From: an uncultured delta proteobacterium
Lineage (GTDB): Bacteria; Desulfobacterota; Binatia; DP-6
Direction: 5' to 3'
DNA length: 64,000 bases
Assembly (NCBI GenBank): GCA_963815115.1
Contig: CAWFFN010000012.1
Span: 543,260-607,259 of the forward strand
Below the pieces are notes generated by a model, which had not been told where the DNA came from, searched no databases, and saw nothing but the letters and a program-made list of their open reading frames with translations. Positions 2,053 to 28,282 of the stretch are shown piece by piece. The first letter of the stretch is position 1, and the number at the start of each line of letters is the position of its first letter. A program made the translations under genes and the position numbers.

Positions 2053-4587
2053 CTACCGCGCCCACAGGATCTGCGCCGCCTCCAGCGGCACAATCGCCCC
2101 GGGGTGGTCCGGAATCACCCGCGGCGTCCAGTCGCTCGCCGGTCGCGTCGCGGCGATGCGAGCGGTGAACACGTAGCCGTTTGCGTTTCCCTCGATACGA
2201 CCCGCCCGCGTCATCGCGACCAGCTCGGGCGGCCCGCCGTTGCGGCCGTCGGCGTACAGCTCGACGCGTACGGCGTCCGGGGGCAGCGTCCCGAGCTGCA
2301 CGCCGACGCGATAGACGTGCGAGTCGCCGTCGCGCTCGACGTGCGTCTCGCCGTAGCGGACGCCGTGCCAGCCCTCGGCGAGCGCGTGTTGCCAGGCGAC
2401 CAGCGCGGAGCCGGCCGCGCCGCGGTCCGCCGCCCGGGCGCGGTAGCGCGCCGCTGCCGGCAGGTAGTAGCCCTCGGTGTACTCGCGCACCGCGCGGCTG
2501 GCGGAGAAGCGCGGCGTGAGCTCGGCCATGCTCCGGCGCATGCGGGCGATCCAGGCGGTCGGCACGCCATCGGCGCCACGCTGGTAGAAGTCGGGTACGA
2601 CCTGCCGCTCCAGGATCTCGTAGAGGGCCTGCGCCTCGCTCGCGTCCCACGCGGGATCGTCGCCGTGCTCGCGACCGTCGCCGAGCGCCCAGCCGACCTC
2701 CGCCGAGTACGCCTCCGCCCACCAGCCGTCCAGCTCGGAGAGGTTGAGGCCACCGTTCACCAGCACCTTCATGCCGCTCGTGCCGCACGCCTCCCAGGGG
2801 CGGCGCGGCGTGTTGATCCAGACGTCCACCCCCTGCACGAGCTGCTCGGCGAGCAGCATGTCGTAGTCGGCGAGGAACACGACCGAGCGCGCGACCTCGG
2901 GCCGGCGCGTGAACTCGATCCACTGCTTCACCATGAGCTGCCCCGCCGTGTCCGCCGGGTGCGCCTTGCCCGCCACCGCGAGCTGCACCGGGCGGTCGGG
3001 GTCGGTGAGGAGCCGCACGAGGCGGTCGGGATCGTGCAGCAGGAGATTGGGCCTCTTGTAGGTCGCGAAGCGTCGCGCGAAGCCGAGCGTCAGCGCGTCG
3101 GACCGGAAGACCTGCGCCACCTCCTGCACCTCGGCCGCCGTCGCCCCGGTGGCGGCGCGCTGGCGCGACAATCGGTAGCGCACGTCTGCGACCAGCGCAG
3201 CGCGATTCGCGTTCCGCAGCCCCCACAGATCGGCGTCGCGGACCGACTTGAGGGAGTCCGCCGGTGCGCCCTCGGGCGCGTCGACCCAGCGATTCTTGCC
3301 GCACGCGCGCGTCCAGAGGTCGTCGGCGGCCGCCGAATCCCAGCTCGGGGCGTGAACGCCGTTGGTGACGTAGCCGATCGGGATCTCGTCTCGGGGCCAG
3401 CGCGGGAACAGCGACTGGAAGATGCTGCGGCTCACCTGGCCGTGCAGACGGCTGACACCGTTGACCGCGGTGCTGCACCGCATCGCGAGGAGCGCCATGT
3501 TGAAGGCCTCGGAGGCATCGTCGGGACGCTCGCGGCCGAGCGCCAGGAGCTGCTCCACGGGGATGCCGAGTCCCTTGCGCGCGTAGCCGTCGAGCGCCCG
3601 CGCCACGAGGTCGGGCGCGAAGCGGTCGAACCCGGCGGCGACGGGCGTGTGCGTGGTGAACACGTTGCCGCCGCGGGTGACGGCGAGCGCCACGTCGAAT
3701 GGCTGGCCGGTCGTCTCCATGAAGTCGCGCGCCCGCTCCAGGACCGCGAACGCCGCGTGTCCTTCGTTCAGATGGCACACGTCGGGGTGCAGGCCGAGCC
3801 GGCGCAGCAGATGCCAGCCGCCGATGCCGAGCGCGATCTCCTGGATCAGCCGGAGCGCCGGGCCGCCGCCGTACAGCTCGCTGGTGATGCCGCGGTCGGC
3901 GGGGGTGTTGGCCGGGTCGTTCGAGTCGAGGAGATAGAGCGTCGTCCTGCCCACGCGCGCCTGCCAGGCACGCAGCCAGACTCGGCGCCCCCGCGTGGTC
4001 ACCTGGAGGCGGAGCCATTCGCCGTCGGGCTCCCGCACCGGCGTGATGGGAAGGAAGGTCGGCTGGTTCGGCGGGTAGAGCGCGCGCTGCGAGCCGTCGG
4101 GTTCGATGACCTGCCGGAAGTAGCCCTCCTGGTAGAGGAGCCCGACGCCGACCACCGGCACGCCGAGATCGTGCGCCGCCTTCAGCTGATCGCCGGCGAC
4201 GTTGCCGAGGCCGCCCGAGTAGATCGGGAGCGCCTCGCTCAGTCCGAACTCCATGCTGAAGTAGGCGACGCACCCGAGCGGCGCCTCCGGCTGCGTGCGC
4301 TGGAACCAGGCTGGAGCGGTGAGGTAGCTGCGGCGTCCCGCGACCAGCGCTTCGAGTCGGCTCCGGAAGGCCGGGTCGCGCAGGGCGTCTTCCAGCCGGG
4401 TCCGGGCGACGGTCTGCAGCACGAGCCACGGATTGTGGGTGAGCGCCCACAGCTCGGCGTCGAGCTGGCCCCACAGCTCGTCGGCGGAGTGCTCCCAGGT
4501 GGAGCGCAGGTCGAGCGCCAGCTCGACGAGCTGCTCGATGCCTGGCACGTCGGCGTGAGGCCAGTAGGGGGCGAGCGGGCGGTCCAT
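2053..4587 (-). CDS. glgP: alpha-glucan (glycogen/maltodextrin) phosphorylase, GT35 family
   Basis: 844 aa from the ATG at 4587 with GGAGGG as RBS. Motifs YFSMEFGL, GGLGNVAGDQLKAA, TTHTPVAAG and the EACGTSGMK pyridoxal-phosphate lysine motif are present. The 1218-aa ORF in the track has a spurious N-terminal extension. Confidence 0.9.
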   Translation of the reverse strand: MDRPLAPYWPHADVPGIEQLVELALDLRSTWEHSADELWGQLDAELWALTHNPWLVLQTVARTRLEDALRDPAFRSRLEALVAGRRSYLTAPAWFQRTQPEAPLGCVAYFSMEFGLSEALPIYSGGLGNVAGDQLKAAHDLGVPVVGVGLLYQEGYFRQVIEPDGSQRALYPPNQPTFLPITPVREPDGEWLRLQVTTRGRRVWLRAWQARVGRTTLYLLDSNDPANTPADRGITSELYGGGPALRLIQEIALGIGGWHLLRRLGLHPDVCHLNEGHAAFAVLERARDFMETTGQPFDVALAVTRGGNVFTTHTPVAAGFDRFAPDLVARALDGYARKGLGIPVEQLLALGRERPDDASEAFNMALLAMRCSTAVNGVSRLHGQVSRSIFQSLFPRWPRDEIPIGYVTNGVHAPSWDSAAADDLWTRACGKNRWVDAPEGAPADSLKSVRDADLWGLRNANRAALVADVRYRLSRQRAATGATAAEVQEVAQVFRSDALTLGFARRFATYKRPNLLLHDPDRLVRLLTDPDRPVQLAVAGKAHPADTAGQLMVKQWIEFTRRPEVARSVVFLADYDMLLAEQLVQGVDVWINTPRRPWEACGTSGMKVLVNGGLNLSELDGWWAEAYSAEVGWALGDGREHGDDPAWDASEAQALYEILERQVVPDFYQRGADGVPTAWIARMRRSMAELTPRFSASRAVREYTEGYYLPAAARYRARAADRGAAGSALVAWQHALAEGWHGVRYGETHVERDGDSHVYRVGVQLGTLPPDAVRVELYADGRNGGPPELVAMTRAGRIEGNANGYVFTARIAATRPASDWTPRVIPDHPGAIVPLEAAQILWAR

Positions 4588-4595
4588 ACGCGAAG

Positions 4596-6250
4596 TCAGC
4601 CCTCCACCACGGCGAAGGCCTCCCGGAGGATCGCGTCCGCGTCCTCCTGGATGCGGCGGAGGTGATCGGGACCGCGGAAGCTCTCGGCGTAGACCTTGTT
4701 CACGTCCTCGGTCCCCGACGGGCGGGCGGCGAACCAGCCGTGCTCGGCGATCACCTTGACGCCGCCGATCGGCGCGCCGTTGCCCGGTGCGGTGGAGAGG
4801 ACCCGCTGGATGGGCTCGCCGCCGAGCTGCCGCGCGCGCACGTGCTCCGGCGCCAGCGTGCCGAGCGCGGCCTTCTGCTCGGGCGTCGCGGGCGAGTCGG
4901 TGCGCTCGTACGCAGGCTCGCCGAACTCCCGCGTGAGCTCGCGCCAGTGCTCGCCGGGATCGCGACCCGTCCTGGCGGTGATCTCGGCGGCGAGCAGGCA
5001 CGGGATGATGCCATCCTTGTCCGTCGTCCAGACCGTGCCGTCGCGCCGCAGGAACGACGCGCCCGCGCTCTCCTCGCCGGCGAAGCCGAACCCGCCGTCG
5101 AGCAGGCCCTCGACGAACCACTTGAACCCCACCGGCACCTCGACCAGCCGGCGGCCGAGCTTCGCGGCGACGCGGTCGATCATGCCGCTCGACACCACGG
5201 TCTTGCCGACGGCGGCCTTCGCCGGCCAGCCGGGCCGGTTCGCGAACAGGTACGCGATGGCAACGCTCAGGTAGTGGTTCGGATTCAGCAGCCCCTCGCT
5301 CCGGCTGACGATGCCGTGGCGATCGGCATCGGTGTCGCACGCGAAAGCGACGTCGAAGCGGTCCTTCAGCTCGACCAGGCGCGCCATGGCCCAGGGTGAC
5401 GACGGATCCATGCGGATCTTGCCGTCCCAGTCGACGGTCATGAAGCGGAAGGTCGGATCGACCGCGCGGTTCACCACCTCGAGCCGCAGCCCGTAGCGCT
5501 CGGCGATCGCGTCCCAGTAAGCCACGCTGGCGCCGCCGAGCGGATCCACGCCCAGGCGGACGCTCGCGCCGCGGACGGCGTCGAGGTCCACCACGGTGCC
5601 GAGGGAGCCGACGTAGGTCTCGAGATAGTCGTGCGGGTGCGTGGTCGCCGCCTTGCGCGCGCGCTGCGTACGGGATGCGCCGCACGCCGCGCAGGCCCTC
5701 CGCCAGCAAGCGCGTTCGCCTGCTCCTGGATCCACCCGGTCACGCTCGTGTCGGCCGGGCCGGCCTCCGGCGGGTTGTACTTGAAGCCGCCGTCGGTGGG
5801 CGGGTTGTGCGACGGCGTGATCACGATGCCGTCGGCGCGACCGGTGGTGCGACCGCGGTTGTAGGTGAGGATGGCGTGCGAGATCACCGGGGTCGGCGTG
5901 TAGCCGGCGGTCCGGTCGACCATGACCTCGACCTCGTGTGCGGCCAGGACCTCGAGGGCGCTCGCGAACGCGGGCTCGGAGAGGGCGTGCGTGTCGATGC
6001 CGATGAAGAGCGGGCCGTCGGTGCCCTCCTTGGCGCGATGGCGGCAGATGGCCTCGGTGGTGGCGAGGATGTGGGCCTCGTTGAAGGCGACGTCGAAGGA
6101 CGAGCCGCGGTGGCCCGAGGTGCCGAACGAGACGCGCTGCGCGGGCACCGCGGGATCGGGCTGGCCCGTGTAGTACGCGGTCACCAGCCGCGGCACGTTG
6201 ACCAGCAGCGCGGGGTCGGCCGGCTTGCCGGCCAGCGGGCTCGTCGCCAT
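4596..6250 (-). pseudogene. pgm: phosphoglucomutase (alpha-D-glucose phosphate-specific) reading through three frames; two apparent +1 frameshifts near 5640-5710
   Basis: N-terminal frame (ATG 6250): [13 protein letters not shown]...FGTSGHRG...[29 protein letters not shown]. Middle frame: [20 protein letters not shown], matching E. coli LADGLKGVKRISLDEA. C-terminal frame: [14 protein letters not shown]...GVDPLGG...[15 protein letters not shown]...GEESAG... to the stop at 4596. The 1655 nt span is not a multiple of 3. Confidence 0.8.
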
Positions 6251-6254
6251 GACC

Positions 6255-6383
6255 TCAGTCCGCCCACACCGGGTCGCGCAGCGGGTTGTCCTGCAGGTGG
6301 ATCTGCCCGACCACCAGGTAGTTGGCGGCGTCCCAGTACGCCTGCATGCGGGCGAGCTGCACCTCGGAAAGCGGACCTGCCAT
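6255..6383 (-). CDS. 42-codon ORF with a strong RBS, encoding an N-terminal relic of phosphoketolase (Xfp)
   Basis: [42 protein letters not shown] matches the Xfp N-terminus (...[27 protein letters not shown]). GAGGAGAACG-ATG RBS. It lies in the 161 bp gap between the tkt stop and the pgm start, so there is no room for a full 800-aa Xfp. Confidence 0.5.
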
Positions 6384-6411
6384 CGTTCTCCTCGGGGGTT
6401 CTCCGGGCGGG

Positions 6412-8490
6412 CTACTTCGTGGCGCGCGCGCGGGCGAGCTGCTCTCGTGCCGCCTCGAGCACGCGGTCGGGAGTGAAGCCGAACTTCTTGAGGAGCTGCT
6501 TGAGCGGCGCCGAGGCACCGAAGGTGTGCATGCCGATGCTCTCCCCGTGGGTTCCCACGTAGCGGCTCCAGCCGAGCGTCGACGCCTGCTCGACCGAGAC
6601 GCGCGCGGTGACCTCCGGCGGCAGGACCGAGTCGCGGTACTCCTGCGGCTGGCGGTCGAACAGCTCGAGGCACGGCATGCTGACCACGCGCGCCCGCACG
6701 CCCTCCTTGACGAGCTGCTCGTAGGCGCCGACGCACAGGCTCACCTCGCTCCCGGTGGCGAGCAGCAGGACCTCCGGCTGGCCGCCCGGGGCGTCCGCGA
6801 GCACGTAGGCTCCCCGCGCGACCCCCGACGCGGCCGCGTAGCGCGTGCGATCGAGCGTGGGCAGCGCCTGGCGGCTGAGGATCATCGCGACCGGCTCGTG
6901 CCGCAGCTGCATGACGGTGCGCCAGGCCTCGACCACCTCGTTGGCATCCGCGGGCCGGATGGTGAGCAGCCCCGGGATGGCGCGCAGGGACGCCAGGTGC
7001 TCGACCGGCTGGTGCGTAGGACCGTCCTCGCCCACACCGATCGAATCGTGGGTGAAGATGAAGATGACCGGGATCTCCATGAGCGCCGCCAGCCGGATGG
7101 TGGGCCGGCAGTAGTCGCTGAAGATCAGGAATCCCGACCCGAACGGACGGACCTTGGTGAGCGCCATGCCGTTCACGATCGCACCCATGGCGTTCTCGCG
7201 GATGCCGAAGTGGAAATTCCGGCCGCCGGGGTCCGCGGCGGAGAGATCGCCGGCCCCTTCGAAGGTGAGGCGGGTCTTCGTCGACGGCGACAGGTCGGCG
7301 GCGCCGCCGAGCAGCCACGGCACGTGCTGCGCGAGCGTGTTGAGCACCTTGCCCGAGGACTCGCGGCTGCCGAGCCCCTTGGCATCGGTCGGGAACGGCG
7401 CCAGGCCCGCGTCCCAGCCCGCGGGCAGCTCGCGGCGCTGCATGCGTTGCATCTGATCGGCCAGGTCCGGGAACTGCGCCCGGTACGCCTCGACCTTGTC
7501 GGCCCAGGCTTCGCGGAGCCCGCGCCCGCGCCTGCCCACGCCGGCGGCGAAGTGCTCGCGCACGCCGTCGGGGACGAGGAACTGCGCGTCCTCGGGCCAG
7601 CCGTAGGATCGCTTGGCCAGCCGCACTTCCTCCTCACCCAGCGGCTCGCCGTGAGCGGCGCTGGTGTCCTGCTTGTGGGGCGCGCCGTAGCCGATGTGGC
7701 TGTCCACGATGAGCAGCGTCGGCCGGTCGGTCGTGCGCTTGAAAGTGGCAAAGGCGCGCTCGAGCATGTCGAGGTCGTTGGCGTCGCCCACGCGTACCAC
7801 GTTCCACCCGTATGCCAGGAAGCGGCAGGCGACGTCGTCGCTGAATGTGAGATCCGTGTGACCTTCTATGGTCACGTGGTTGTTGTCGTAGATCCAGCAC
7901 AGGTTCGGGATGCGCAGGTGGCCGGCGAACGACGCGGCCTCGTTCGAGATGCCCTCCATCATGCAGCCGTCGCCGCACAGCGCGTAGACGTCGAAGTCGA
8001 AGAGGTCGAAGCCGGGCCGGTTGAAGTGCCGCGCCATCCAGCGCCCGGCGACGGCCATGCCGACGCTGTTGGAGACGCCCTGGCCGAGCGGCCCGGTGGT
8101 GCACTCGACCCCGGAGACGATGTGGTACTCCGGGTGACCCGGGCAGCGGCTGCCGAGCTGGCGGAAGCTCTTGATGTCGTCGAGCGACACGGAGGGTTGG
8201 CCGAGCACCTCGTAGTCGGGATCGACGGCCTGCACCCCGGTCAGGTGAAGCAGGGAGTAGAGGAGCATGGACGCGTGACCCGCGGAGAGCACGAACCGGT
8301 CTCGGTTGGGCCAGATCGGATCGCTCGGGTCGAAGCGCAGGAAGCGCTGCCAGAGACAGTACGCCACGGGCGCCATGCCCATGGGCGTGCCGGGGTGACC
8401 GGACTCGGCCTTCTGGACGGCGTCGATGCAGAGGGTGCGAATCGTGTTGACGCACAGCCGGTCGAGGTCGTGCGGATCGCTCTGGGGCAC
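6412..8490 (-). CDS. tkt: transketolase
   Basis: 692 aa from a GTG start at 8490 with GGGAGGG as [22 protein letters not shown] (the TPP-binding GHPG motif), [13 protein letters not shown] and the C-terminal domain are all present. Confidence 0.9.
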
Positions 8491-15402: not shown

Positions 15403-16619
15403 GCAGCCGGCGCAAGGTCCTCGTGCTCGGCAAGAGCGACTCGAGCTTCCTGACCGTCATCCGGTCGCTCGGCCGCCAGGGCATCGAGGTCCACATCGCC
15501 TGGTGCCCGTCCATCGAGGTCGCCCGTCGGTCGCGCTACGTGCACACGGTTCACGAGCTGCCGCCGTTTCGCCCCGGCGACGACGCATGGAAGTGGGCGT
15601 TCCTCGATCTCTGCGAGCGTGAGCGCTTCGATCTCGTGATCCCGACCAACGATCCGACCATCATCCCGTTGCAGGAGCACCGCTCCGATCTCGAGCCGCA
15701 CGCGCGCATCTACCTGCTGAACGAGCGCGCCTACCGCGTGGGCTACGACAAGCAGCGCAGCTACGAGGTCTGTCGCGAGATCGGCGTCCGGGTCCCGAAT
15801 CACCTCATCCTGCCCGTGCCGGCCGAGCCGGCGGATGTGCTGCGCGAGTTCTCGCTACCCGTGGTGGTGAAGGCGCGCTCGTCGTTCCGCTCGGAGGATC
15901 TCGGCGATCGGCGCCGCACGCGCGTGGCGCGCGATCCGGACGCGCTTCGCCAGTGGCTGCACGTCCTGATCGGTCGCGCCGACGAGGTGCTCATCGAGGA
16001 GTACTTCGAGGGAGAGGGCGGCGGCATCGACCTGCTGTGCGCCGACGGCCAGGTGCTGCACGCCTTCCAGCACCTCCGGCTGCACGAGGGTCGCGGCTAC
16101 TCGTCGGCGCCGTACCGGCTGAGCGAGCCGGTGCACCAGGGGATGCTGGCCGACGCGCGCAAGTTCGTGCGCGCGCTCGACTACACGGGCGTCCTGATGA
16201 TGGAGTTCCGCATCAATCGCGCGACCGACCAGTGGCTGTTCCACGACTTCAACGCGCGCTTCTGGGCGGCGCTGCCGCTCACCGTCGCGTCGGGCGCGGA
16301 CTATCCGTACTGGCTCTACCAGGTGCTGGTCGAGGGAAAGCGCGACTTCCCCGCGGAGTATCGGTCCGGAATCTCCTGCCGCAACTGGCGCCTCGACCTG
16401 CTCTGGGTGAAGGAGAACTTGTCGCTGCCGCGCCACGAACGCACGCCCGTGCGCGAGCTGGCGAAGGAGGCCTGGCGCTTCGTCACCCTGCGCGAGTGGA
16501 GCGACACGCTGGTGCGCGACGATCCCGTGCCGGGCCTCGTCGACCTGTCGCGCATCGCCGGCCGGCTCGGCCGCACCATCGGCCGCGGCGGGCGGCTGTT
16601 CCCCTCGTCGGCGAGATAG
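15399..16619 (+). CDS. ATP-grasp domain ligase
   Basis: KVLVLGKSDSSFLTVIRSLGRQGIEVHIA is the pre-ATP-grasp N-domain. LPVVVKARSSF, EEYFEGEGG and MMEFRIN are the ATP-grasp core. The ATGA junction overlaps the GT4 stop. Confidence 0.75.
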   Translation: MSSRRKVLVLGKSDSSFLTVIRSLGRQGIEVHIAWCPSIEVARRSRYVHTVHELPPFRPGDDAWKWAFLDLCERERFDLVIPTNDPTIIPLQEHRSDLEPHARIYLLNERAYRVGYDKQRSYEVCREIGVRVPNHLILPVPAEPADVLREFSLPVVVKARSSFRSEDLGDRRRTRVARDPDALRQWLHVLIGRADEVLIEEYFEGEGGGIDLLCADGQVLHAFQHLRLHEGRGYSSAPYRLSEPVHQGMLADARKFVRALDYTGVLMMEFRINRATDQWLFHDFNARFWAALPLTVASGADYPYWLYQVLVEGKRDFPAEYRSGISCRNWRLDLLWVKENLSLPRHERTPVRELAKEAWRFVTLREWSDTLVRDDPVPGLVDLSRIAGRLGRTIGRGGRLFPSSAR

Positions 16620-20814: not shown

Positions 20815-21019
20815 GACGACCCCCGGAGGTAGCCGAGCCAGTAGATCGCGTAGATCGCCGCGGCCCAGACGGCGAGCACCAGCCGGAGGATCACGGCGGC
20901 GCTCCGGCGAGGGGCTCCTGGGGGCACATGGGCGCGGGAGAATAGCGGGAAGCCTCCCGGATGACGAGAGCAACGAAGCCCGCTTACGTTGTGGCACCTG
21001 CGGGGGTCCAGCGACGCTG

Positions 21020-21049
21020 TTCCCAATCCCGACGGTGCCCGCGTATACT
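21020..21049 (+). promoter_or_regulatory. candidate promoter TTCCCA-N18-TATACT for the mntA-hepT operon (leaderless start)
   Basis: An AT-rich TATACT box sits 6 nt before the GTG at 21056 in a 70% GC background. Confidence 0.3.
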
Positions 21050-21055
21050 GCGCCG

Positions 21056-21463
21056 GTGACCGCCATTGACGACATCCGCGGCGTACTGGATCAGCGCGAC
21101 GATGTCCGCCTCGCGTACGTCTTCGGTTCCGTCGCCCGCGGGCACGCCCGGCCCCGCAGTGACGTCGACGTGGCGGTGCTCTTCGAGGGGGAGGCCACGC
21201 CGGGGGTGCTGGACCATTTCACCGAGGACCTCGAAGACGCTGCGGGCCGACGGGTCGATCTCATCGATCTCGCGACGGCTCCTCCCCTTCTGGCGCATCA
21301 GGTCGTGTCCACGGGCACCTGCATCGTGTGTCGCAACCCGAGGGAGCGTGCGTCCTTCGAGACCAGGACCGTCATCCGCTATCTCGACACTGCGCATCTC
21401 CGAAAGCTCCAGCACAGGTATCTCGCCAAACGCGTACAGGCGCGTCATGACGATCGAGCCTGA
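21056..21463 (+). CDS. mntA: MntA-type nucleotidyltransferase antitoxin (type VII TA)
   Basis: GTG start. AYVFGSVARGHARPRSDVDVAVLF is the GSxxRGxxxxxSDxD minimal nucleotidyltransferase motif. 135 aa. Confidence 0.75.
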   Translation: MTAIDDIRGVLDQRDDVRLAYVFGSVARGHARPRSDVDVAVLFEGEATPGVLDHFTEDLEDAAGRRVDLIDLATAPPLLAHQVVSTGTCIVCRNPRERASFETRTVIRYLDTAHLRKLQHRYLAKRVQARHDDRA

Positions 21464-21875
21464 CGTCGTCAGGCGCAAGCTTCTCGAGATCAACGAGGCC
21501 ACGGGGCACCTGCGTTCGTGGATCCCGGTTACAATCGAGCGGCTCGAGACGGACCAGCAACTCCGCTGGGCCGTCGAGCGGGGCCTGCAGGTCGCCGCCG
21601 AGGCGCTTTTCGACGTCGGGGCGCACATTCTTACAGCCGAATTCCAGGAGGCTGTGGACGAATACCGGCACATTCCGAAGCGACTCCTAGCCCGAGGCGT
21701 CCTGTCGTCGGAGACCGCTGCAAAGCTGAAAGGCCTCGCCGGCTTTCGCAATGTCCTTGTGCACGAGTACGCCGAGATCGACCTGAAGCGCGTTCACGCT
21801 GGGCTCGAGCGACTCGGCGACTTCGACGCGTTCGTCTCGGACGTGGAGCGCTGGCTGCAAGAGAGGACGGGGTGA
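21447..21875 (+). CDS. hepT: HepT-type (DUF86) RNase toxin
   Basis: The RX4HXY motif is RNVLVHEY. 142 aa. Overlaps the mntA 3' end by 17 nt. Confidence 0.8.
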   Translation: MTIEPDVVRRKLLEINEATGHLRSWIPVTIERLETDQQLRWAVERGLQVAAEALFDVGAHILTAEFQEAVDEYRHIPKRLLARGVLSSETAAKLKGLAGFRNVLVHEYAEIDLKRVHAGLERLGDFDAFVSDVERWLQERTG

Positions 21876-22151
21876 GGAGGTGATGACGGGGCTGCTCGAG
21901 CGACACGGCCCCGGGTGGCTCGGGGCAGGACACCCTATTTCTTGATCATGACGTGCTCTCCTTGAGGTATGAATTGAGGTACGAACGTCGGCGACGGCCT
22001 GCGCAGGCGCCGGAGGTTCGATCGGCCATCGATCACGCGGACCGCGCGCAACGGTGTCATGCTCGTGAGCCGTACAGTTTCGTGCGAGACACCTGCCGAT
22101 CTGCGCGCGCTGCGCAGCCCGCTCCCGCTGTGTGTGGGCCCGCGATATTCA

Positions 22152-23018
22152 CTATAGGGAGATATGGAAGCAAGAACACGGGAAATTGTCAGCACCCACA
22201 CAGGATGATCCAATAGGACAATGGCCGCCGCATTGGGGAAACGTACCCCCGCAGACGGGGGGTGGGGCACAGCCGCACGTTCCACCGAAGTTGACGCCCA
22301 CACATCTCATCCCGTTAGGGCAAGTGCCGTTGCAGGCCGGCCTAGATCCCCTACACGTGAAGATCATCGTGGTCGTTGTGGTCGTGGTCGTTGTGGTCGT
22401 GGTCGGGGTCATCGGCGGTGAGCAGGTGCCCTCGGTCACCGGCTTTGCAACCTTGAACTGCTTCGTGCCGTCGTTGGTGACCTGCCCGTCCGCGAAGCGA
22501 ACGTCGTAGGTGTCGCCGCCCTCCCCGACCTCGAGCCGCATGCAGCCGTCCGTGCCGGGGTTGGGTGGCAACACGGCAATCGCCCCGAGCTGGCCGATGG
22601 CGACGGCCTTGATCCGGAAGACCCCGCCACCCGATCTCTTCAGCTGCGCGACTTTGACCGGGCCATTCTCGCCCTTCGAGTCCTTGTACTTGAAGCCCCT
22701 GACGGCATCGCCGCTCCAGAACGGCTGCCCGGTCAGTGCGCTCGTGCCTCCGGGCAAGGTGAACGTCTGCTCGCTCGACGTACCGCCGTTGGCCGTGAGC
22801 GTGAGGGTCGCACCCGAGCCGGCGGGGTCACCCACGATGGTATCGGGGCTCCCCACCTCCCTCGCTTTGACCACGACCTGCCGCCTGGCGGGCGTGCTCG
22901 GATTCTTCACTACGAGCTGGTCGCCGAGGATGGTCTGGTCGGCGGCGCCGGCGGGCCGTGCCGCCGTCACCGTCAGGGCAAGCAGCAGGGCGATGTGGGT
23001 CGTCGGACGATGAAACAT
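22152..23018 (-). CDS. secreted protein with a poly-Thr (T13) linker and a C-terminal Cys-rich CPxGxxC module
   Basis: ATG at 23018 with GAGGAGG as RBS. Signal peptide MFHRPTTHIALLLALTVTAARPAGAA. An (ACC/ACG)13 tract at 22371-22412 precedes CNGTCPNGMRCVG...CGGHCPIGSSCVG. The last ~25 codons have atypically low GC3. Confidence 0.6.
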   Translation of the reverse strand: MFHRPTTHIALLLALTVTAARPAGAADQTILGDQLVVKNPSTPARRQVVVKAREVGSPDTIVGDPAGSGATLTLTANGGTSSEQTFTLPGGTSALTGQPFWSGDAVRGFKYKDSKGENGPVKVAQLKRSGGGVFRIKAVAIGQLGAIAVLPPNPGTDGCMRLEVGEGGDTYDVRFADGQVTNDGTKQFKVAKPVTEGTCSPPMTPTTTTTTTTTTTTMIFTCRGSRPACNGTCPNGMRCVGVNFGGTCGCAPPPVCGGTFPQCGGHCPIGSSCVGADNFPCSCFHISL

Positions 23019-23166
23019 GGCCGGAGTCCTCCTCGCGGTTGGTCGTCGGTGGTGTTCGGATGCCCGAAGCAGACTGCGGCGTCTCACCCTGGGGGCGTCG
23101 AAGGCCGCCGTTTCTGGGCCTCGTCAAGGACCGGTCGGATCAATGAACCTCCTCCGAAAGGGGAAC

Positions 23167-23208
23167 GTGACAACGGTGGGAACATGGGTGTGACGCGGCT
23201 GGGAACAT
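23167..23208 (-). promoter_or_regulatory. ATGTTCCC-N5-TGTCAC motif (two to three copies) upstream of the 22152..23018 gene
   Basis: On the sense (minus) strand: ATGTTCCCaccgtTGTCAC at 23185-23167, ATGTTCCCagccgcgTCACA at 23208-23189, and a further GATGTTCC at 23220-23214. Confidence 0.45.
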
Positions 23209-23668
23209 CACCGGAACATCACCGGGGGCTGAGGATGGCGCTTGTCCGGTCCCGGCCCTGCCGGTCCCCGCCCGGCGCAACCGTGCCCCACGGACTGCGC
23301 TGTCCTACAGCGCGGCCCCGAAGCGGCCGGAGGCGGTCGAGGCGGTGCAGGTCTTGCCGAGGCGCCCCGTCACGTGCTGCCGCAGGTCGCTTGCGCGGGG
23401 AAGATAGAGCTTTCAAGGGCCGATTCGGCCCTCGCGCCTTCTACCAGCCCCCGTCGCTCTGTAACGACGTGTGGGGTGTCCCGTGTTCCTCGGAGCGCTC
23501 CGCCGAGACGACACCCAAGGGACGCCCTAGTGTCGCGTCGAGGACAAGTCCGCTACGAAATGGGCTACGGAACGGTTCATCGCCGCGCGATAGCTTGCGG
23601 GTGCCTCCGCCGCACACCCGGGAGGGGTCTCGCGATCGCCGGGCCGAGTGTCCGTGGCCTGGGCGGTG

Positions 23669-23710
23669 ATGTTCCCTTCCGTGTCACATGCATGTTCCCT
23701 GCGCTGTCAC
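23669..23710 (+). promoter_or_regulatory. tandem ATGTTCCC-N5-TGTCAC motif (x2, 23-nt register) upstream of the haloperoxidase-like gene
   Basis: gATGTTCCCttccgTGTCACatgcATGTTCCCtgcgcTGTCAC, 25 nt before the ATG at 23735. Confidence 0.45.
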
Positions 23711-23734
23711 GGTTCCATGGCGAAGGGAGAAACC

Positions 23735-25075
23735 ATGAACTCAGTGCACGCACGTTTTTCCGCAGTGCTCGTAGGCGTCGTCGGGCTCGCGGCCGTCGTC
23801 GTGACGACGAGCCGCGATGCCGGGGCGGTGCTGCCGCCCGGCAACACGGTGCAGCAGTGGAACAAGATCGCAGAGGACACGGTCGTTGGCTCGGGCGCGT
23901 TCCAGGTCGAAGGCCTGATCTACATGGCCTACGTGTCCGCTGCCGTGTATGACGCGGTGACCTCGATCGAGGGTGGCTACGAACCGTACGCGACCGATAT
24001 CCCGGCGCCGCCAGGGGCATCGACGGAGGCGGCGGTGGTCGAGGCCGCCTACCGAACGCTTCTCAACTACTTCCCGACGCAGGGAGCGACACTCATGCCG
24101 CTCTATGACGGAAGCCCTGGCGCTCATCGCCGACGGGAAGGCGAAGGATGATGGCAAGGCGATCGGGCTCACGGCTGAGGACGGCATCATCGCTCTCCGT
24201 ACGGGCGACGGGCGCCTGACGCCGATCGGCACGACATCGCCGTTCCCGACGCTGCCGCAGGGCCCGGGCGTCTGGCGGTTGACGCCCCCTGGGTTCCTCG
24301 TGCCGCAGGTACCCTGGGCGGGATCGGTCACGCCCTTCGTGCTCGAGCGAGGAGACCAGTTCCTGCCCGGTCCTCCGCCCTCGCTCGGGAGCAAGCGGTG
24401 GGTGAGGGACTTCAACGAGATCAAGACCTACGGTGCGGCGAGCGGTAGCGCTCGGACCGACGAGCAAACTGCGGCCGCGCGGTTCTGGACGGCGAACGTC
24501 ATCAGGCAGTACAGCCGCCTGCTCCGTGACGTCGCCGATGCCCACGCACTTGATCTGCTCCAGACGGCGCGGCTCGCGGCGATGGTCGAGCTCGTCGGCG
24601 CCGATGCGGGAATCTCGGTGATCAACGCCAAGTACCACTACCTCTTCTGGCGGCCGGTGACGGCGATCAACCAGACCGCGGTCACGGCCTGACGGCTTCG
24701 GGCCGGTGCCCGGGTTCGACGACGGGAATCCGGCGACGATCGAAGACACCACGTGGCAGCCGCTCCTCACGACGCCGAACCATCCCGAGTACCCCAGCGC
24801 CCACGGCGTGTTGACCTCGGCGATGGCGGAGGTGTTCCGCAAGTTCCTGGGGACGAGCAAGGTCGATCTCGACATCCACGGCTTCGACGCGGCGGGGCTC
24901 GCCAGGGAACCTGGACGCCGTGCGCCACTTCCACAAGATAGGCGCGCTCCCCAGGGAGATCATCGAGGTGAGGATCTGGGGAGGCCTCCACTACCGCAAC
25001 TCGGATGAAGTGGGCGTCGCGGTCGGCCAGAAGGTTGCCCGCTACGACTTGGGGCACGCTTTCAAGGCGCGTTGA
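23735..25075 (+). pseudogene. vanadium-dependent haloperoxidase / PAP2 acid-phosphatase-like secreted protein, disrupted by at least 3 frameshifts
   Basis: Frame 1: signal peptide MNSVHARFSAVLVGVVGLAAVVV...LNYFPTQGATL. Frame 2: TEALALIADGKAKDDG...AKYHYLFWRPVTAIN. Frame 3: GNPATIEDTTWQPLLTTPNHPEYPSAHG. Frame 4: NLDAVRHFHKIGALPREIIEVRIWGGLHYRNSDEVG...AFKAR*. WRPVTAI, HPEYPSxH and GxHYRxD are the conserved VHPO/PAP2 motifs. Frame switches fall near 24100, 24700 and 24905. Confidence 0.6.
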
Positions 25076-25213
25076 ACAGACGCAGTCGAGATGAAGGGAG
25101 CCGGGCCCGCGGTGGGGCCCGGCTCGCCCTCCGTTGACAGGCCACGTCAGCGATGCAGTGACGGGAGGCTCCGGTGAGCACGTCAGCCCGTGTAGAGAGG
25201 CGTGATCGCGGGT

Positions 25214-25780
25214 TCAACCTGCTCGTCGCGGCAGGAGCGAGCGGGACCACACGCGACTCGATCTCCGGCTGCCGGCGCTCGTCGAGCACCCGGCGCAGTG
25301 GCGTGCGCCGCGCGACGACCTGAGCTTGCTGCTCCGCGCCGTGACGAAGATCTTCGCAGTCCTCCTGATCAGGTCGGCCACACTCCTCAGATCGTTGTTC
25401 TCCATGAACGAGCGGCCGAGCATCAGCACGCGCCTGGTGCGCGCGCGGACGACGAAGAAGCCGCTCTCGGGCACCAGGCCGTTCTAGCCGCGAGACAGCA
25501 GCAGGTACTTGCCGCCCAGGCCGCGATCGGGGCCGGGCAGCCGAAATCGATGACCCAGCGCCATCAGAAATCGTCGATCGTGCCGAGCGTATCGGGCGGC
25601 GTTTCGAGCATCATCGGCCCCTTGCTCAGGTCGATGACGCCGACGAAATAGCGTGTCCGCGTTCGCCGTCAGGAACAGCGACTTGGCATGGATCAGCTCG
25701 GAGAAGATGAGGATATCGCTATCCTTCACGCCGGCGTCGCCGAAACCTTTGTGAACGGCTGCCGCGTTGACGCCCTGCAT
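25214..25780 (-). pseudogene. phospholipase-D-like (HKD) gene fragments in two frames
   Basis: ...IHAKSLFLTANAD... is HxK-like and ...MLGRSFMENNDLRS... resembles GSANxDxRS. The pieces are short, interrupted and in different frames. Confidence 0.3.
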
Positions 25781-25990
25781 AGCTGCTCGGCGCTGGGCGC
25801 GACTGCCCTCGGTGACGTGCTACAGCGCGGCGACGGCGGCAACGACTATCGCGGAGGTGGGGTGCGGTGCTGCCGAGCTGTACACCGAGCGCCTGGTCAC
25901 CACTCAGGGTGACCGACCGATAGCGGCCGTGCTGTTCGGTTCGGCGACCCGACGACCGGTACTCCTCCTTCCTTCTGGGCCCGCGCGACG

Positions 25991-26032
25991 ATGTTCCCTG
26001 TCGCGTTCCATGCATGTTCCCTTGGTTGTCAC
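25991..26032 (+). promoter_or_regulatory. ATGTTCCC ... ATGCATGTTCCC-N5-TGTCAC motif upstream of the 26237 gene
   Basis: gATGTTCCCtgtcgcGTTCCatgcATGTTCCCttggtTGTCAC, same orientation and register as the 23669 copy. Confidence 0.45.
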
Positions 26033-26236
26033 ACCTCCATCTCGGGGCCGGCGGGCCCGTCCAGGATGCACCGACGGCACCCTCGTCCAGAAGTTCGCAT
26101 GCCCAATAGAGGCCGTCGGCCGGCTGTTACGGGAGATCCCCCCAAAAGGAAGGTGCCACATGAATCGGACGCTTTGCAGCCGCCATCCTGCTTCGCTCAG
26201 AATATCCGCATATCCGCCCGCCGGATTTCGGCGGCC

Positions 26237-27069
26237 ATGGTGCCCGGCTCTCTCCGCCGCCTCGCCTGGCTCGTTCCCCTCTGCGCCCTGATCGGCTCCG
26301 CTGGAGCGGCGGGCGCAGGCACCCCCGCGCAGACGTGTGCCGCCGCGAAGCTGAAGGCGGCGGGCACGGAAATCGGGGGCGAGATGGGCTGCTACGGGAA
26401 GGCGAAGCAGGCGGGCGTTGCCGTCGATGGGGGCTGTCTCTCGAGGCAACGGATGAAGGCGGACAGGCGGATCAACTCGCTTGACGGCGCCTGCTCCGGC
26501 ACGGCGGCGGCCATCGACGCGGCCGTCGATAATTGCGTGGCCGCGTTCCTCAGCGACGACCCCGGCAACGGGGTGTGCCCGGCGGCGAGCGCGCAGAAGA
26601 TCGGCAAGGGCGGGAAGGCGGAACTCGCGTGTCAGGCGAAGGAAGTCTTGAGGCCGGGCATGTTCGCGGCGTGTGATGAGAAAGCCGACGGCAAGACGGG
26701 CGCGGGCCTAGAGAACGCGGGCGGCTGCGTGAATCCGACGGCCGTCCTCACGGACATCGACAACTGCAACACCGCCATTGACGCCATCATCGAGCAGACG
26801 ACGACCACCACCACCGAGCGACGACCACCAGCGAGCAGACGACCACCACCGAGCAGACGACCACCACCACCATCCCGTCCCCCTGCACTAGTAGTTCCGG
26901 TGGTAGTCCCTGCGATGCTTCTTGCCCTGGCTCTGTTTGCGCCCCGGAGTCGCCGCCTCCCACGGGGCATGGGCATCGCTGTCCATCGCCCCCCCAGCAC
27001 CTTAGCCCCGGGGATGCCTGCGTAGATGCAGACATCTGCGATTATGTTGAGTGCCAGCTCGGACGGTGA
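26237..27069 (+). CDS. secreted Cys-rich protein with an (EQTTTT)4 linker; frameshifted inside the linker repeat (likely pseudogene or assembly indel)
   Basis: Signal peptide MVPGSLRRLAWLVPLCALIGSAGAAGA, then a K/A-rich paired-Cys helical domain. At about 26819, gagcGacgacc replaces the expected gagcAGacgacc. After the shift the frame reads QTTTSEQTTTTEQTTTTTIPSPCTSSSGGSPCDASCPGSVCAP...CVDADICDYVECQLGR* with a stop at 27067-27069. Confidence 0.55.
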
Positions 27070-28282
27070 CTGTGGCTCGGGCAAGGTCTGCTTGAGGCCC
27101 TTTCCCGTCCCCTTCGGCAGCTGCAATGGTCCAGTTACAACGTGCTGCTCCTCATGCGCATCCTATTCTTGCTTGATTTCCCAGGCGCCCGCGTGCGGCG
27201 GCACGTGCCCGAGCGGACAGGTCTGCGCGGTGACTCCGGTGACTCATGCGTCCTGGCGTCCGACCAACACGTGGACTTCCTCACCACGTGGGGCAGCCCG
27301 GGCAGCGTGTGACGGACAGTTCAGCGGGCAGTTCTGCGGCAGCCCATGGCGTCGCCGCGGATGCGAGCGGGCAGGTCTTCGTGGCAGACTCCGGGAACAT
27401 CCGCATCCAGAAGTGCACTGCATCGTGCCCGTTCGTCACCAAGTGGGGCAGCTGCGGGCAGCGGGGACGGGCAGTTCAACCACCCGGTGGGGGTCGCCGT
27501 GGATGGGAGCGGGAACGTCTTCGTCGCCGACAATTCGGCAACCACCGCATCCAGAAGTTCGACAACACCGGGACGTTCGTGACCACGTGGGGGAGCGCGG
27601 GCAGCGGGGACGGGCAGTTCATTAACCCGGTGGGGGTCGCCGTGGATGGGAGCGGGAACGTCTTCGTCGCCGACTCGCGCAACAACCGCATCCAGAAGTT
27701 CACGAACACCGGCACCTTCCTCACCACGTGGGGCAGCCTGGGCAGCGGGGACGGGCAGTTCCATACCCCGCAGCGGGGTTGCCGTGGATGGGAGCGGGAA
27801 CGTCTTCGTCGCCGACGTCGCCAACAACCGCATCCAGAAGTTCACGAACACCGGCACGTTCTTGACCAAGTGGGGCAGAATGGGCAGCGGGGACGGGCAG
27901 TTCAATGAGCCCCATTGGCCTCGCCGTGGATGGGAACGGGAACGTCTTCGTCGCCGACACGCAACAACCGCATCCAGAAGTTCACGAACACCGGCACGTT
28001 CTTGACCAAGTGGGGCAGCGCGGGCAGCGGGGACGGGCAGTTCGACCAGTCCCGTCGACGTCGCCGTGGATGGGAGCGGGAACGTCTTCGTCGCCGACTC
28101 CGCCAACAACCGCATCCAGGAGTTCGACGAACACCGGTACCTTCCTCGCCACGCGAGGCTGCCCGGGCAGCGGGGAGGGGCAGTTCAATTTCCCGCACGG
28201 CGTCGCCGTCGGATGCTCCAGCGGAAATGTGTTCGTCGCCGACGAGTTCAACAACCGCATCCAGAAGTTCGCGTGTCCATAG
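27026..28282 (+). pseudogene. NHL-repeat (six-bladed beta-propeller) gene with seven tandem 141-144 nt repeats, about one indel per repeat. Probably the continuation of the 26237 gene.
   Basis: The Cys-rich lead-in (DCGSGKVCLRPFPVPFGSCNGPVTTCC...CGGTCPSGQVCAV) follows the previous stop in another frame. The repeats encode TKWGSxGSGDGQFNxPxGVAVDGSGNVFVADSxNNRIQKFTNTGTFLT but are scattered over six overlapping ORFs in three frames. The last repeat ends ...NNRIQKFACP*. Confidence 0.55.
27281..28282 (+). repeat. 7 tandem DNA repeats (about 141-144 nt) encoding NHL blades
   Basis: Blocks such as ggcagcggggacgggcagttc and gtcgccgtggatgggagcgggaacgtcttcgtcgccgac recur at approximately 27433, 27577, 27721, 27862, 28001 and 28144. 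Confidence 0.75.

Follow-up and report, generated by a model that had tools for sequence, protein, structure and literature searches.

What is a 42-codon open reading frame (ORF) doing in the slot between tkt and pgm, which it fills from one side to the other? The frame lies in a 64,000-nt stretch of DNA (the window), and all features of its locus are on the minus strand (Table 1). The original prediction described a translatable relic of the phosphoketolase gene xfp with a good Shine-Dalgarno sequence (SD), an ATG, and the tkt stop 28 nt upstream, and each of these elements is found where it should be. The SD stands 4 nt before the ATG, and its duplex with the anti-SD (CCGAGGAGA) is calculated at -8.9 kcal/mol. 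The distance to the pgm ATG, given as 5 nt, was off by one at most, the spacer being 4 nt (ggtc). The genes on either side belong to a cluster also found in the closest genome, L010, with 87% identity for tkt and, for glgP, a single-frame tblastn HSP of 844 aa at 76% identity. Elsewhere in the window, the GC3 frame signal at 21000-28000 is weaker and less stable than in the remainder, and this segment may be non-coding, foreign or degraded.

Table 1. Features of the tkt-(xfp)-pgm-glgP locus, in window coordinates and in the order of transcription
Feature	Position	Strand	Description and basis
tkt (transketolase, 692 aa)	6412..8490	minus	Full-length Pfam Transketolase_N, Transket_pyr and Transketolase_C_1; stop TAG at 6414-6412; most upstream gene of the operon
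tkt-xfp spacer, 28 nt	6384..6411	minus	Native xfp SD GAGGAG at 6388-6393; sequence
42-codon ORF (stub)	6255..6383	minus	ATG at 6383-6381; TGA at 6257-6255
Relic 5' part	6270..6383	minus	xfp codons 1-39 minus one Leu codon (CTGCTG to CTG); Pfam XFP_N, tblastn, blastn map, junction analysis
Relic 3' part	6255..6269	minus	Final 4 xfp codons (VWTD, with T replaced by A) and native TGA; blastn, relic nt 106-129 against L091 xfp nt 2341-2364
Stub stop-pgm ATG spacer, 4 nt	6251..6254	minus	Length invariant in the lineage, sequence in 7 variants
pgm (phosphoglucomutase)	4596..6250	minus	Disrupted by two 1-nt insertions; ATG at 6250-6248; Pfam domains I-IV split over two frames
glgP-like alpha-glucan phosphorylase	2053..4587	minus	Intact, last gene of the cluster; tblastn

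Judged by its sequence, the ORF is almost certainly a vestigial remnant of xfp produced by an internal in-frame deletion that kept both ends of the gene, and not a 5' stump. It matches Pfam XFP_N over profile positions 2-33 of 364 (E=3.5e-6, 26.5 bits, the curated cut-off being 23.7 bits), and residues 1-40 of the intact Xfp of a relative (locus L091), used as a tblastn query, align to 6383-6267 with 82.5% identity (E=4.6e-15), so the resemblance to phosphoketolase noted at the outset is not a product of chance. Mapped on the L091 xfp, the first 114 nt of the ORF correspond to codons 1-39, and the last 15 nt to the four final codons (VWTD, here VWAD) and the native stop. The view of the relic as the 5' end of xfp therefore holds for its N-terminal codons but not for its last four to seven codons and its stop, which are the native 3' end of the gene. 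The junction falls in a CGCGA microhomology, its position being ambiguous within relic nt 105-117, and the net loss of 2235 nt (745 codons) is made up of a 2232-nt internal deletion and a 3-nt slip. When the 42 residues were used in a protein search, only tiny proteins (42-73 aa) were returned, each joining an Xfp N-terminus to the extreme C-terminus (...PEIRDWVWTD*); on their contigs the context is the same throughout, the mini-ORF following tkt after a short spacer and preceding pgm by exactly 4 nt. The C-terminal end of the other relic alleles reads ...RDW[VTML]W[TS][DQ]*. The sole co-member of the protein cluster to which the 42-aa protein was assigned, P0246, is a RodA-type protein and was dismissed as a clustering glitch.

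Against a functional phosphoketolase Xfp/Xpk, which has complete XFP_N (364 positions), XFP and XFP_C domains over about 790 aa (787 aa in the orthologue), the stub has 42 aa. Its N-terminal 39 and last 4 residues are orthologous to the Xfp of the same locus, but about 95% of the gene is missing, including, with orthologue codons 40-783, the catalytic core and all thiamine-diphosphate-binding regions, and the predicted product is unable to act as an enzyme. No second copy of xfp was found within the 64-kb window.

Comparison of the locus in relatives bears out the proposal that xfp once stood beside tkt and was later deleted. In L091, a metagenomic locus, the intact xfp occupies the same slot, separated from the tkt TAG by 27 nt where the window has 28 nt, and its junction with pgm (TGA-4 nt-ATG) is that of the window; xfp is apparently intact in L092 and L095 as far as their contigs extend. 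In the L010 genome, a metagenome-assembled genome (MAG) labelled 'uncultured delta proteobacterium', two inserted regulator genes separate tkt from xfp; xfp lies directly upstream of pgm, and glgP comes next. The L106 locus, from a Candidatus Binatia MAG, has the upstream amidohydrolase-HAD-tkt synteny in common with the window. The ORF thus combines significant similarity to Xfp with a slot that it shares with an intact orthologue, as expected of a pseudogene remnant.

Several further features of these loci were observed. The xfp of L010, full-length in other respects, is frameshifted about 100 codons before its end, at about 16100-16300, with the true C-terminus in another frame, probably through an error in this Nanopore MAG. 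In the sister lineage, two genes are inserted between tkt and xfp (L010, 12226-14008) or between tkt and pgm (L106, 3438-5242); one encodes a MEDS/B12-binding-domain protein, the other an HTH regulator, and they may regulate the cluster in response to light or cobalamin. In one sub-lineage, a MazE/PemK (mazEF-like) toxin-antitoxin pair lies between tkt and a 73-aa relic (L006, 1289-1847; L007, 156-714). On a wider scale, xfp directly adjoins the same type of tkt, on either side, in at least 12 of 80 genome loci from several phyla (L010, L012, L014, L018, L038, L042, L043, L047, L048, L065, L066, L070), which suggests that tkt-xfp is a recurrent functional module.

The window is one of many loci in which xfp has been reduced in this manner. 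Eleven relic alleles were found in the focal clade, with lengths of 35 aa (L102), 40 aa (L112/L113), 42 aa (window), 48 aa (L009), 62 aa (L008), 66 aa (L001-L005), 69 aa (L100), 73 aa (L006/L007), 88 aa (L098), 112 aa (L090) and 120 aa (L094), and between them they contain 13 distinct large-deletion junctions. Their architecture differs by allele, from 22 to 63 N-terminal and from 4 to 57 C-terminal residues, with middle pieces in some. The deletions measure 2256, 2241, 2235, 2217, 2175, 2163, 2154, 2142, 2001, 1992+105 and 180+1845 nt; all 13 are divisible by 3, and microhomology at the junctions amounts to 0-5 nt. Moreover, every allele (11/11) begins at the native xfp ATG and ends at the native TGA, which lies 4 nt ahead of the pgm start. 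Were frame of no consequence, the chance that 13 of 13 deletions would be in frame is (1/3)^13, about 6e-7, for junctions which may comprise nested, successive events and so may not be wholly independent; when one event is counted per sub-clade (6), p is about 1.4e-3.

Detection of these alleles did not depend on reading frame, since it combined a metagenome scan with a DNA-level, frame-independent N-terminal motif, which yielded L091 and five further relic alleles, with an exhaustive search by HMMER through 1.8 billion representatives. In that search the short proteins with AANYLVVGQ or a truncated form of it were all in-frame fusions of N- and C-terminal pieces, and among the proteins of the focal clade none had an out-of-frame tail. 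Sampling through the N-terminal motif under-represents alleles without the motif and complete deletions, of which one exists (L106). Protein searches with Pgm for tkt...pgm junctions gave four unrelated loci (L107-L110) and L106 as the sole informative one, the close relatives not being returned. A hard minimum of 28 N-terminal codons, which had hinted at a functional 5' element, was discarded: the 40-aa allele breaks at codon 22, and the apparent minimum arose because the search patterns cover codons 13-27. As to the position of the breakpoints, four left ones lie inside an 8-9-nt direct repeat, ATCTACCT, found at nt 82-90 and 184-192 of the L091 xfp (codons 28-30 and 62-64). They come right after ATC[T/C]AC, at nt 87 in L009 and L006 and at nt 189 in L094 and L100 (L091 xfp numbering), and the repeat could be a deletion hotspot, or the coincidence could be due to chance.

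Could the missing interior be an artefact, a complete xfp collapsed by mis-assembly? The window does resemble a long-read MAG contig, it has two indels in pgm, and the xfp of L010 is frameshifted. Such a collapse is nevertheless next to inconceivable here: the microhomology at the junctions is too short to mislead an assembler, 5 independent assemblies (JGI, ENA) agree exactly on the 66-aa allele, the 40-aa and 73-aa alleles each occur in at least 2 samples, and different assemblers produced the eleven distinct alleles.

Relic and intact alleles are close to one another in sequence. The relic-bearing L094 and the intact L095 are 100% identical over 84+230 nt (314 nt), the relics L090, L102 and L008 have 93-98% identity to the intact L091 and L092, and the window falls together with L009 and L098 (89-95%), the three carrying three different deletions. 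Because relic and intact alleles are interleaved in this way, loss of xfp is recurrent, recent and polymorphic. Several of the deletions are very recent, and the pattern that they form would therefore reflect immediate viability and not long-term maintenance. At the level of sequence comparison, it can be regarded as demonstrated what the relic is, where it comes from, and that the deletions are in frame without exception.

Recent loss also invites another account, in which the ORF is an inert, young leftover that has stayed open since GC-rich DNA has few stops. The identity of L094 and L095, which marks a very recent deletion, fits this account, as do the drift of the peptide sequence and the state of pgm in the window, where a frameshifted gene may leave no downstream need for coupling. 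On the other hand, about two thirds of the junctions would be out of frame under neutrality, whereas all 13 are multiples of 3; inertness would not be expected to preserve the native ATG and stop in 11 of 11 alleles, or to fix the length of the 4-nt spacer while the tkt-xfp spacer varies. An inert leftover is therefore considered unlikely.

The condition of pgm in the window bears on the same question. Two bases, a T at about 5708 and a C at about 5666, are surplus in the gene; they lie 42 nt apart, are uncompensated and split it over three frames, a state that the original prediction had not foreseen. When both are removed, a clean 550-aa protein is reconstructed in alignment to the L091 pgm. 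The insertions are either sequencing errors or recent pseudogenisation. In the relic-bearing L002-L004 the pgm region is open throughout. Error is plausible since tkt and glgP are intact, the contig is 908 kb long and related long-read MAGs carry similar indels. The GC3 frame plot, consulted for other frameshifts in the window, is too noisy to judge the pgm indels. If the insertions are real, the operon is decaying here, and the stub is now a mere fossil whose coupling serves nothing in this genome.

If the stub is more than a fossil, its value could lie in the peptide, in the RNA or in the passage of ribosomes. The peptide does not look as though it were under selection, judging from the alleles. 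Replacements occur at sites that are invariant in Xfp (Y29H in the window; I28T, K46E and W54R in L001; Y16D in L098; N33K, P34G and L36R in L100; also D18N), and pN/pS, calculated for the older relics with the nearest intact allele as reference, reaches 0.31-0.69 where intact pairs have 0.04-0.29, all on small counts. Neither conserved architecture nor purifying selection on the peptide, both expected of a functional small protein, was found. In the relic of L100, pairs of compensating frameshifts had been suspected and turned out to be merely clustered substitutions. A mini-protein made of the N-terminal helix and C-terminal tail of Xfp, functional in itself as, for example, a regulatory or dominant-negative micropeptide, might be read from the one N-terminal block (16 residues) that is nearly invariant in most alleles and from the recurrence of N+C fusions in several Xfp clades. 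Conservation of the block is explained, however, by the fact that most divergence between the alleles predates the deletions. A functional mini-protein is also hard to reconcile with an architecture that is different in every allele, with a 40-aa allele devoid of LVVGQI, with the replacements listed above, and with the finding that XFP_N is the only family matched, in Pfam or elsewhere; it is very improbable.

The RNA gives no better indication of a function. In the stub region the fold z-score is +0.89 against shuffled sequence, and there is no Rfam match and no promoter-like or terminator-like site. Alternative hairpins or a terminator, which an attenuator or leader peptide would call for, are not present, and the stub is not an attenuator leader.

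The passage of ribosomes remains to be considered, and here the spacing of the genes is informative. The distance between the stop of xfp, or of its relic, and the pgm start is always 4 nt in the lineage, in seven sequence forms, and the tkt-xfp spacer ranges over 26-29 nt. The pgm SD in this 4-nt lineage is a weak GGACGGA (-5.5 kcal/mol) located within the last xfp codons. In the window, GAGGU stands 1 nt ahead of the pgm ATG, and together with the weak SD of the relatives this makes some independent initiation on pgm possible. In the sister lineage, the xfp-pgm spacer is 16-19 nt long and has its own GAGG. There, at 5243-5275 of L106, xfp has been deleted entirely: an HTH gene is followed by 29 nt and pgm, and the conserved upstream motif (aactcgtgtagtcgatg) is joined straight to the SD-containing spacer. 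This complete deletion indicates that xfp can be lost in full where pgm is provided with an SD of its own.

The stub itself has the layout of a translationally coupled ORF, with stop and start 4 nt apart, its own SD and ATG, and constraint on both frame (13/13) and stop (11/11). In reporter experiments on termination-reinitiation, the upstream gene's final 15 nt were enough, a spacer of about 20 nt abolished the effect, and an overlap or a very short spacer was needed (PMC10666635). The shortest relics keep 12-21 nt of the xfp 3' end, consistent with the sufficiency of 15 nt (PMC10666635). A change of frame would have one of two consequences: a +1 shift reads into the pgm frame and meets no stop for 784-1660 nt, giving a fusion, and after a +2 shift ribosomes would run 56-74 nt into pgm, over its start codon. 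Since an out-of-frame deletion would thus lead to a Pgm fusion or to overrun of the pgm start, only in-frame deletions of xfp would be permitted.

The harm done by such products might in itself be enough, without any need for reinitiation on pgm: aberrant polypeptides of great length, or a Pgm extended at its N-terminus, as the +1 and +2 frames predict, could be eliminated for their toxicity alone. There is a large overlap between this explanation and coupling, both resting on where ribosomes stop, but harmful products leave unexplained the invariant 4-nt stop-start spacing and the link between an own SD and complete deletion seen in L106, and they are quite improbable as the full account. It is probable, from the comparative pattern, that what keeps the stub in place is coupling by termination-reinitiation, with ribosomes terminating beside the pgm start. 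We infer that translation of the stub and termination-reinitiation on pgm would be the property selected. The original prediction had offered a small upstream or coupling ORF for pgm as the alternative to a deleted xfp. The 13 in-frame deletions and the native start and stop kept in 11 alleles lend comparative support to that option, and the two alternatives are supported together: the ORF is what remains of a deleted xfp and, probably, a coupling ORF.

The following sequence of events can be proposed. In a Binatia-like soil bacterium, an ancestral operon would have had the order tkt-xfp-pgm-glgP, with xfp second. A microhomology-mediated deletion of 2232 nt and a slip of 3 nt would then have removed codons 40-783 and fused codons 1-39 to the last 4 codons and the stop. 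Ribosomes would still load at the native xfp ribosome-binding site and ATG, translate 42 codons and terminate at the native TGA, and those terminating would reinitiate on pgm, 4 nt downstream. Under selection for expression of pgm (and glgP), xfp could be lost only by deletions that keep the frame and leave both ends of the gene in place.

Stubs of this kind are not confined to the focal clade. The exhaustive search also returned in-frame N+C stubs from unrelated Xfp clades (P0273, P0322, P0338, P0346, P0362, P0376); these were picked by their C-terminal motif, so they are uninformative on the statistics of frame. For example, P0362 is a 66-aa in-frame relic in lower-GC loci (L114, 1543-1745; L115; L116, 396-600), situated between a TreT-like glycosyltransferase gene and the acetate kinase gene ackA, and its end, TGA-T-ATG, lies 1 nt before the ackA start. 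The stub architecture thus appears, from these loci, to arise beside another tightly spaced downstream gene as well. The same search brought up a great number of short N-terminal pieces of Xfp whose tails are frameshifted (within P0248-P0396), for example ...PRLLGHWGT as AAAGPLGHVARPQL. They look like long-read indel errors for the most part, by which one family gives rise to hundreds of spurious small-protein clusters.

Altogether, gene loss in tight operons may well lead, repeatedly and under selection, to vestigial coupling ORFs, xfp having been lost at least 13 times in the Binatia-like clade and elsewhere upstream of ackA. No precedent for naturally recurring vestigial coupling ORFs was found in the literature searched, which is not proof of absence. 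So far, coupling has been shown mostly by reporter constructs in a few model organisms, and the loci described here amount to a replicated natural deletion experiment. If the interpretation is correct, in-frame N+C stubs would be a natural, readable signature of translational coupling in uncultured organisms, and a purely comparative test for it would consist in relating the frame of deletions to the distance at which the next gene starts. Coupling would then limit how the genes of an operon can be lost, and a class of tiny 'hypothetical' ORFs, arbitrarily called or discarded in annotation, would be explained. The same alleles document that the phosphoketolase branch has been lost repeatedly, and is still being lost, from the tkt-xfp-pgm-glgP glycogen-utilisation cluster.

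Among known systems, the stub can be compared with translationally coupled gene pairs (Huber et al. 2019, 2023; PMC6728339, PMC10666635), with which it shares its own SD and ATG, a stop a few nt from the next start, and about 12-21 nt of native 3' end, in keeping with the finding that 15 nt are enough (PMC10666635). It differs from them as a vestige whose sole plausible role would be the delivery of ribosomes, and the evidence for that role is comparative, not experimental. Regulatory leader peptides and the upstream ORFs of attenuation systems are likewise short ORFs immediately ahead of a gene, as the stub would be if it is translated, but the stub has no alternative hairpins, terminator, Rfam element or conserved regulatory codons, and its origin as the remnant of a gene is documented. 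In the design of the Keio collection, the start codon, the last few codons and the stop of each deleted gene were reportedly retained so that translation downstream would not be disturbed. Engineered non-polar scar deletions of this type resemble the stub closely, with a native start, a short filler, the last native codons and the native stop, an arrangement by which polar effects on the next gene would be avoided. Whereas such scars are made by design, the stubs are natural products of repeated microhomology deletions with variable breakpoints, which selection would have filtered.
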